Shown here piece after piece: positions 8,402 through 8,813 of a stretch of 64,000 bases of DNA (position 1 is its first letter; each line of letters starts with the position of its first letter). The position numbers were made by a program, and so were the translations under genes. The notes under the pieces are model-generated. The model was not told the origin of the DNA, did not search any database, and saw only the letters and a list, made by a program, of their open reading frames with translations. The stretch lies in the NCBI RefSeq assembly GCF_030013595.1, contig NZ_CP122768.1; one strand, given 5' to 3'. Source of the stretch: Escherichia coli. GTDB lineage: Bacteria > Pseudomonadota > Gammaproteobacteria > Enterobacterales > Enterobacteriaceae.

Positions 8402-8752
8402 AGTAAATAGCTGACTTATGGATGTGCTGGGGATTCTATGTATTTAGCTGTGGCTTTACCATTACTTTTCCCGTTTTTGACTTAAATAGCAATTTACCCG
8501 CCAATTCTTGCTGAACATCTATACTTTTTTTGTATTTTTATGCGATTCATTGATTTCTGCAGTACGTGCAGGAAGGAATCGCAGAGCAACAGTGAAAGAA
8601 TATGGTTGCTAATGATTTTATTTGATTGATTTCTTTATTGAAAATCAACAATGTGCTTAAAAATCATTCGGGTCGTATTGCCGCGAAAGAAGTGATACAC
8701 TAGCGCGTCAATATCAGTGCGGTATCAGTATTCAGGTAGCTGTTGAGCTTGG

Positions 8753-8764
8753 GGCGGTAGCGTG
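8753..8764 (+). promoter_or_regulatory. ops element (GGCGGTAGCGTG) within a JUMPstart-like 5' leader of the waaQ operon; RfaH recruitment site
   Basis: Exact 12-mer ggcggtagcgtg about 50 bp upstream of the waaQ start, on the coding strand. Confidence 0.85.
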
Positions 8765-8813
8765 CTTTTTCTGCTTCACCTTAATCGGATAATCTCAACA
8801 AAAAGAGTTACTT

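Follow-up and report, generated by a model that had tools for sequence, protein, structure and literature searches.

This report concerns a 64,000-nucleotide stretch of Escherichia coli DNA (contig NZ_CP122768.1, RefSeq assembly GCF_030013595.1), called the window below, and in it the 12-nucleotide (nt) motif GGCGGTAGCGTG, found on the + strand at 8753-8764 upstream of waaQ, the first gene of an operon for the lipopolysaccharide (LPS) core. Judged by sequence comparison, this 12-mer is very probably the ops element of the E. coli waaQ (rfaQ) operon, lying within a JUMPstart element and serving as the site of RfaH recruitment and RNA polymerase pausing. The waaQ ops/JUMPstart, the RfaH dependence of the operon and the small RNA RirA are already known from the literature, Rfam and RefSeq.

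ops and JUMPstart in the waaQ leader

The 12-nt ops consensus GGCGGTAGnnTG is matched exactly by GGCGGTAGCGTG. The match is the single exact copy in the whole window, where 0.03 copies are expected by chance (mean of dinucleotide-preserving shuffles of the window), and no further copy was found in the 64 kb with one mismatch tolerated. The motif and the genes from waaQ to the O-antigen ligase are all on the + strand, which puts ops on the sense (non-template) strand. Between the end of ops at 8764 and the GTG start of waaQ at 8814 there are 49 nt; the distance becomes 85 nt if the ATG annotated in MG1655 (window 8850) is used instead. A first-pass annotation made from the letters alone had described an exact ops 12-mer about 50 bp upstream of waaQ, in a 412-bp region shared divergently with waaA, and the measurements bear out each of these statements; the intergenic region spans 8402-8813 by open reading frame coordinates and NCBIfam gene identities. 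Its reading of RfaH-dependent antitermination is supported by the JUMPstart context, the sense strand, the position after the transcript 5' end, the conservation of the element and the literature on the locus. One point of its strand logic needs to be corrected. It took the non-template orientation as evidence against ops, but RfaH reads ops in the non-template strand (PMC5995543, PMC2871177) and ops must therefore be on that strand. The motif on the waaQ coding strand is in the functional orientation, and it is the opposite orientation that would speak against an ops element. A transcript start downstream of the motif had also been named as contrary evidence; the 5' end placed by homology (8708, see below) is upstream of it.

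An Rfam scan of 8300-8900 with all families had a single significant hit, JUMPstart (RF01707), located on the + strand at 8726-8764 and scoring 51.0 bits against a gathering threshold of 35 and an E value of 9.8e-11. The match covers the full length of the model (1-38 of 38), so the comparison with JUMPstart proposed in the first-pass annotation came out positive, and the ops 12-mer forms its 3' end. JUMPstart is the only Rfam family that reaches threshold across the 64-kb window. Its small hairpin (arms 8733-8737 and 8747-8751, + strand) has 5 bp, all of which form, one as a G.U pair. In 19 distinct waaQ leaders this hairpin is 100% paired, with compensatory changes at pair 33/49 (A-U, G-C, U-A and G.U).

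Short motifs recur, and the 12-mer might in principle be a chance occurrence with no regulatory role. The window does contain four further copies of the 8-mer GGCGGTAG, at 1411, 19936, 35579 and 45803; the total of five compares with 1.3 expected and was reached in 1 of 100 shuffles. Two of the four are antisense, and the copy at 19936 is sense-oriented within hldD. They were rejected as extra ops elements: they match at 8-9 of 12 positions, lack T11/G12 of the 3' nnTG, have no JUMPstart and lie inside open reading frames, and intragenic ops-like sites are reportedly not bound by RfaH (PMC9765446). For the 12-mer at 8753-8764, with 0.03 exact copies expected, a full JUMPstart of 51 bits around it, and a position conserved in virtually every E. 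coli and ahead of waaQ homologues in about 12 genera, a chance origin is extremely improbable. No sequence evidence against the identification as ops was encountered in the window.

What can be read from the DNA directly is ops on the sense strand; the mechanism is taken from the literature on the locus and on RfaH. Within the transcription bubble, RfaH recognizes ops on the non-template strand, where the element forms a small hairpin (C3:G8) that presents G5 and T6 (PMC5995543, PMC2871177). The waaQ and rfb operons have ops and JUMPstart in their 5' untranslated regions and no good ribosome-binding sites; RfaH prevents premature termination there, and rfaH deletion mutants make truncated LPS (PMC6358824). 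Reviews state that the waaQ operon requires RfaH (PMC6358824, PMC8745692, PMC5736990). RfaH excludes NusG and recruits ribosomes through S10 (PMC5449661), and it remains bound for the entire operon (PMC2871177). In CFT073, chromatin immunoprecipitation with sequencing located RfaH on rfa, with ops in the 5' leader, and intragenic ops-like sites were not bound (PMC9765446). Recruitment of RfaH and the dependence of distal genes on it have thus been published for the orthologous operon in K-12 and CFT073 (PMC5449661, PMC9765446).

By analogy, RNA polymerase transcribing ops in this strain would pause as the non-template strand folds into the small hairpin. RfaH would bind the exposed bases, its C-terminal domain would refold, and the protein would remain attached to the polymerase until the whole ~9-kb operon has been transcribed. 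The bound RfaH would exclude NusG, cut pausing, counter Rho and H-NS, and recruit ribosomes to genes with poor Shine-Dalgarno sequences. The waaQ leader would also yield the short RirA RNA, which may titrate RfaH.

Conservation of the waaA-waaQ region and private variants

A query of 7100-10000 matched 5,424 of 5,426 complete E. coli genomes; the best match has 99.9% identity and is annotated coaD, waaA, rfaQ and waaG. The 412-bp intergenic region was likewise found in 5,424 of the 5,426, in two haplotypes: a window type (about 4,467 genomes at >=95% identity) and a K-12-like type (about 936 genomes at 60-80% identity). Both ends of the region are conserved and the central ~165 bp is replaced between the haplotypes. 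The spacer is a mosaic, in which ~8491-8655 is unrelated sequence in the K-12-like haplotype with the ~110 bp next to waaA and the promoter/leader both conserved. Among 10 E. coli leaders, picked by overall intergenic similarity and not by motif, ops is invariant and the JUMPstart varies at two positions only. The divergent neighbor waaA (Kdo transferase, 7124-8401, - strand) is a full-length match to the NCBIfam equivalog NF004385 with 905 bits.

The search was extended across genera by a DNA-pattern scan of species-representative genomes (GGTAGC, a gap of 5-12 nt, then GGGCGGTAGCGTG). It found at least 120 loci, mostly in Enterobacterales and often several per genome. Among the matches listed, 18 loci from about 12 genera have a WaaQ homologue that starts 23-49 nt after ops. 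These come from Kosakonia, Citrobacter, E. albertii, Enterobacter, Pseudescherichia, Pluralibacter, Kluyvera, Shimwellia, Cedecea, Silvania, Ca. Symbiopectobacterium and E. coli. What is informative from the other genera is that geometry and promoter are conserved and that the hairpin covaries. A wider distribution, in Bacteroidales, Actinobacteria and Firmicutes, was considered and rejected. These matches trace to a single conserved coding region, to chance in GC-rich sequence, or to contigs that are probably contaminants or wrongly binned. Six Bacteroidales contigs match the pattern within one common coding region and are not JUMPstarts. A 4-kb low-coverage 'Arthrobacter' contig and two contigs of Firmicutes metagenome-assembled genomes have rfb JUMPstarts of the E. 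coli type, which points to contaminated or mis-binned public assemblies.

The closest known system is the waaQ leader of K-12. It has the identical 12-mer and a JUMPstart that differs by one base, and it resembles the window in the flanking waaA and waaQ genes, the strand, the distance from the rirA 5' end and the extended -10 promoter. It differs at 8749, where the window has T and a G.U pair and K-12 a G-C pair (51.0 vs 55.2 bits), and at 8676 (position -32), where the window has T and K-12 G. The U-run after ops has five T in the window and six in K-12. In the middle of the intergenic region the two represent different E. coli haplotypes, and the operon of the window is R4-like (waaO, waaT, waaW, GT25) and not of the K-12 core type. 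A second comparison is the O-antigen rfb leader of O32 (galF-wzx), which shares the ops 12-mer and the hairpin with the window, down to the GAGCTTGGGG variant seen at window position 8749. In contrast to the window, the O32 leader serves a different operon, has no U-run after ops and lacks the upstream segment that pairs with the 3' part of ops.

The window and its nearest relative show about 10 differences in 13.3 kb, two of them in the leader. At 8676 in the TCGGAT block, G is changed to T; nine other E. coli leaders have G here, and other genera have G or A. A 45-mer centered on a changed base seeds a megablast match only in genomes with that change, and the 45-mer centered on 8676-T had no match among the 5,426 complete E. 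coli genomes. At 8749, C is changed to T, which converts a G-C pair of the JUMPstart stem into G.U and lowers the Rfam score from 55.2 to 51.0. The 45-mer centered on 8749-T was found in nine genomes. The two that were inspected are O32 O-antigen JUMPstarts and not waaQ leaders, and an allele common to other waaQ leaders was therefore rejected on the matches inspected. The variant occurs naturally in the O32 JUMPstart and so is tolerated in a functional JUMPstart.

Transcript start, RirA and the leader hairpins

According to reviews, RirA contains ops and JUMPstart and has a common transcription start site with the waaQ mRNA (PMC8745692, PMC5736990). In the MG1655 RefSeq record, the noncoding RNA rirA (b4760) is 73 nt long and lies in the waaQ leader. 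Alignment of K-12 to the window places the rirA 5' end at 8708 and ops at +46 to +57. The element would then be in the untranslated 5' leader, 45 nt past the rirA-equivalent 5' end and before waaQ. The RirA equivalent, representing the first ~72 nt of the waaQ mRNA leader, is assigned by homology to 8708-8779 on the + strand. It contains ops and JUMPstart and begins at the equivalent nucleotide, but it lacks one U of RirA (b4760) and differs from it by several substitutions, located within the first 20 nt and at the 3' end. An extended -10 element, TGaTACACT, is found at 8693-8701 on the + strand (TG at 8693-8694, hexamer at 8696-8701), 7 nt before this 5' end. The waaQ transcript is predicted to start at about 8708 from this putative extended -10 promoter, and most of the ~12 genera sampled keep the sequence GTGnTACACTA in their waaQ leaders. 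A simple sigma-70 scan of 8300-8900 did not report the extended -10 since it has no -35 match, and gave only two weak sites near 8615-8667. A simple terminator scan of the same interval found no terminator in the leader.

RNA folding places the JUMPstart hairpin inside an extended leader hairpin (8716-8721 with 8761-8766, and 8723-8729 with 8754-8759, + strand), in which the 3' half of ops (8761-8766) is the 3' partner. Five U follow directly (8766-8770), giving a terminator-like arrangement. The arrangement may set the 3' end of RirA or act as an attenuator. An RNA-level attenuator of this kind, in which the long hairpin and U-run release a ~73-nt RirA that titrates RfaH, is possible and we hold it only tentatively. 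It would make DNA-level loading of RfaH only part of the account, and it adds to that explanation and does not exclude it. RirA is an annotated and published small RNA with a common 5' end, and the pairs of the extended hairpin are 92-94% formed in the 19 distinct waaQ leaders vs at most 52% in slid controls. All 5'-side changes in these leaders keep the pairing. The hairpin was, however, derived from one of the compared sequences, and the 18 leaders are related, so that the counts are not independent. The arrangement is also enriched in waaQ leaders: at least four of the six ops 3' bases are paired upstream in 78% of them vs 32% of 90 other JUMPstart leaders, and a T-rich tail follows ops in 78% vs 13%. 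Other observations count against an attenuator. Folding gives weak z-scores (-2.3 in K-12 and +0.4 in the window), the outer stem has G.U pairs, and the hairpin was not reported by the terminator scan. In addition, the annotated 3' end of RirA is ~9 nt past the U-run, and the 3' partner is ops, whose sequence is kept constant for unrelated reasons as well as by the search pattern.

Several points weigh against the identification of ops at 8753-8764 as a functional RfaH loading site of the waaQ operon, which we nevertheless prefer. The start at 8708 is transferred from the K-12 annotation by homology only. The leader carries the two private changes, 8676 G>T and 8749 C>T. The invariance of ops across genera follows from the search itself, whose pattern demanded it. 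The 64-kb window yielded no rfaH gene, and the presence of rfaH in the strain is assumed; in K-12 it lies ~200 kb from waa. Finally, a polar mini-Tn5 in waaQ is still polar and phenocopies the loss of rfaH (PMC5449661).

The operon and its interrupted waaT-like gene

The first gene, waaQ/rfaQ (heptosyltransferase III, 8814-9872, + strand), matches NF007742 with 714 bits over positions 1-351 of 352, and has a GTG start with a weak Shine-Dalgarno sequence. Its start is annotated inconsistently, as the ATG at 8850 in MG1655 (344 aa) and as the GTG at 8814 by PGAP in genomes of the window haplotype (352 aa). The GTG at 8814 appears better supported than the ATG because PGAP uses it in 6 of 7 other E. 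coli leaders fetched (all six of the window's haplotype), tblastn alignments of WaaQ in other genera start from the first residue of the GTG form, and the differences between K-12 and the window in 8814-8849 are mostly synonymous.

Eight further genes follow on the + strand, identified by NCBIfam/Pfam and the annotation of the nearest genome: waaG (9869-10993), waaP (10977-11783), waaO (11799-12815), an amber-interrupted waaT-like GT8 gene (12832-13827), waaY (13837-14529), a waaW-like GT8 gene (14555-15583), a waaX-like GT25 gene (15615-16382) and the O-antigen ligase gene (16422-17675). We take a GT25 gene at this position of the operon to indicate the R4 core type. The nine LPS-core genes occupy 8814-17675, or 8.9 kb, in good agreement with the operon of roughly 9 kb given in the first-pass annotation. 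A terminator-like hairpin of 12 pairs at 17691-17717 (+ strand) follows, between the convergent ligase and waaC genes. It is the only such + strand site that the consensus scan found in 8700-17900, and none lies inside the operon. The hairpin is the probable end of the waaQ operon and perhaps a terminator for both convergent operons. The GC content is 0.47-0.49 in waaQGP, 0.30-0.38 from waaO to the ligase gene and 0.49 in the whole window. Most starts are preceded by a weak Shine-Dalgarno sequence or by none. The operon fits the profile of an RfaH target: it is long, encodes envelope functions, is AT-rich in its distal part, has poor Shine-Dalgarno sequences and contains no internal + strand terminator. 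As a side observation, a one-base deletion at 16366 relative to the nearest genome makes the GT25 (waaX-like) protein end in AFFLF* instead of AFFSLLK*.

The interruption of the GT8 gene reported in the first-pass annotation is real. The waaT-like gene has the same length as the intact gene of the nearest genome and differs from it by two bases, one of which creates an in-frame amber codon at 13135-13137 (TAC>TAG, Tyr102*), as determined by alignment and translation. With a single substitution and equal length, the interruption is a nonsense codon and not a frameshift or insertion. The amber-centered 45-mer was found in 0 of 5,426 complete E. coli genomes, and the wild-type control 45-mer in 2,443. 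The amber allele is private to this strain or a sequencing error.

Errors of sequencing or assembly could in principle account for the amber and the two leader changes together. At the waaQ/waaT locus, all three variants are missing from the 5,426 complete genomes: the 45-mers centered on 13137 and 8676 have no match at all, and the two inspected of the nine 8749 matches are O32 leaders. A C>T change in the waaT-like gene at 13641 is also apparently private, the best matches over the gene all being 99.8%. Yet a difference of about 10 changes in 13.3 kb is what distinct strains ordinarily show, the variants in question are all clean substitutions and not homopolymer indels, and inactivation of the outer core is common, as shown by an amber in the adjacent GT8 gene of the nearest relative and by insertion sequences in waaT. 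We therefore regard such errors as rather unlikely, and prefer to read the three variants as genuine.

The nearest relative, NZ_CM149870, has an intact waaT-like gene and its own amber, K210*, in the waaW-like gene (window 15182; position 17083 of its locus). In other genomes waaT contains IS1 or IS5, rfaQ is frameshifted, or an IS1 copy sits in the waaA-waaQ spacer. Outer-core genes thus seem to be inactivated repeatedly and independently. The nearest relative also has an IS200/IS605 transposase gene and a match to the STnc490 RNA between rpmG and mutM (6941-7064 and 7074-7532 of its locus). Both are absent from the window, and the alignment of the two genomes breaks at ~5711-5740.

The first-pass annotation had suggested that RfaH may buffer the polarity of the interrupted gene on waaY and waaL. 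After the amber there are 699 untranslated nt before waaY (13138-13836). C exceeds G in 40% of the 78-nt windows of this stretch, and C/G reaches at most 1.6, which makes Rho loading after the amber conceivable. RfaH reportedly abrogates Rho-mediated polarity in essence, with a ~300-fold effect on rfb (PMC5449661), and a major part of its effect is ribosome recruitment and coupling (PMC6391919). Buffering of the amber polarity on waaY and the later genes by RfaH is plausible, and would probably be partial because ribosome recruitment and coupling are absent over the 699 untranslated nt. The RfaH-modified polymerase would be partly shielded from Rho over this distance, which would leave some transcription of waaY and the genes after it.

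A strongly polar amber, with waaY to waaL poorly expressed despite RfaH, is the less likely outcome, and we give it a minority share of the expectation. The untranslated 699 nt and their C>G composition are compatible with Rho loading, and the polar mini-Tn5 in waaQ mentioned above mimics the loss of rfaH (PMC5449661). On the other side, RfaH excludes NusG, suppresses pausing without translation and essentially abrogates Rho polarity (PMC5449661), and being bound through the whole operon (PMC2871177) it could re-recruit a ribosome at waaY.

During assembly of the R1/R4 core, WaaW, WaaX and the ligase act after WaaT. Since the genes that follow waaY thus act downstream of the missing step, a rough phenotype is expected with or without polarity, and the expression of waaY alone would still matter for it.

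A more speculative extension, which we consider doubtful, joins these features. The waaQ-specific hairpin and U-run would form an RfaH-sensitive attenuator that gates the entry of polymerase into the operon and releases RirA as feedback on RfaH. The changes at 8749, where the inner stem is weakened, and at 8676, within the conserved block at -32, may shift the balance, and together with the waaT amber may represent an adaptive rough-LPS variant.

With ops at 8753-8764 accepted as the RfaH loading site, the reading made from the letters alone correctly spotted a real 12-nt regulatory site, and the analysis adds no new biology to the locus. For annotation, the waa operon is best treated as one RfaH-dependent transcription unit of ~9 kb starting near 8708. 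The strain itself probably makes a truncated (rough) R4-type core as a result of the amber in the waaT-like gene, whatever the polarity.

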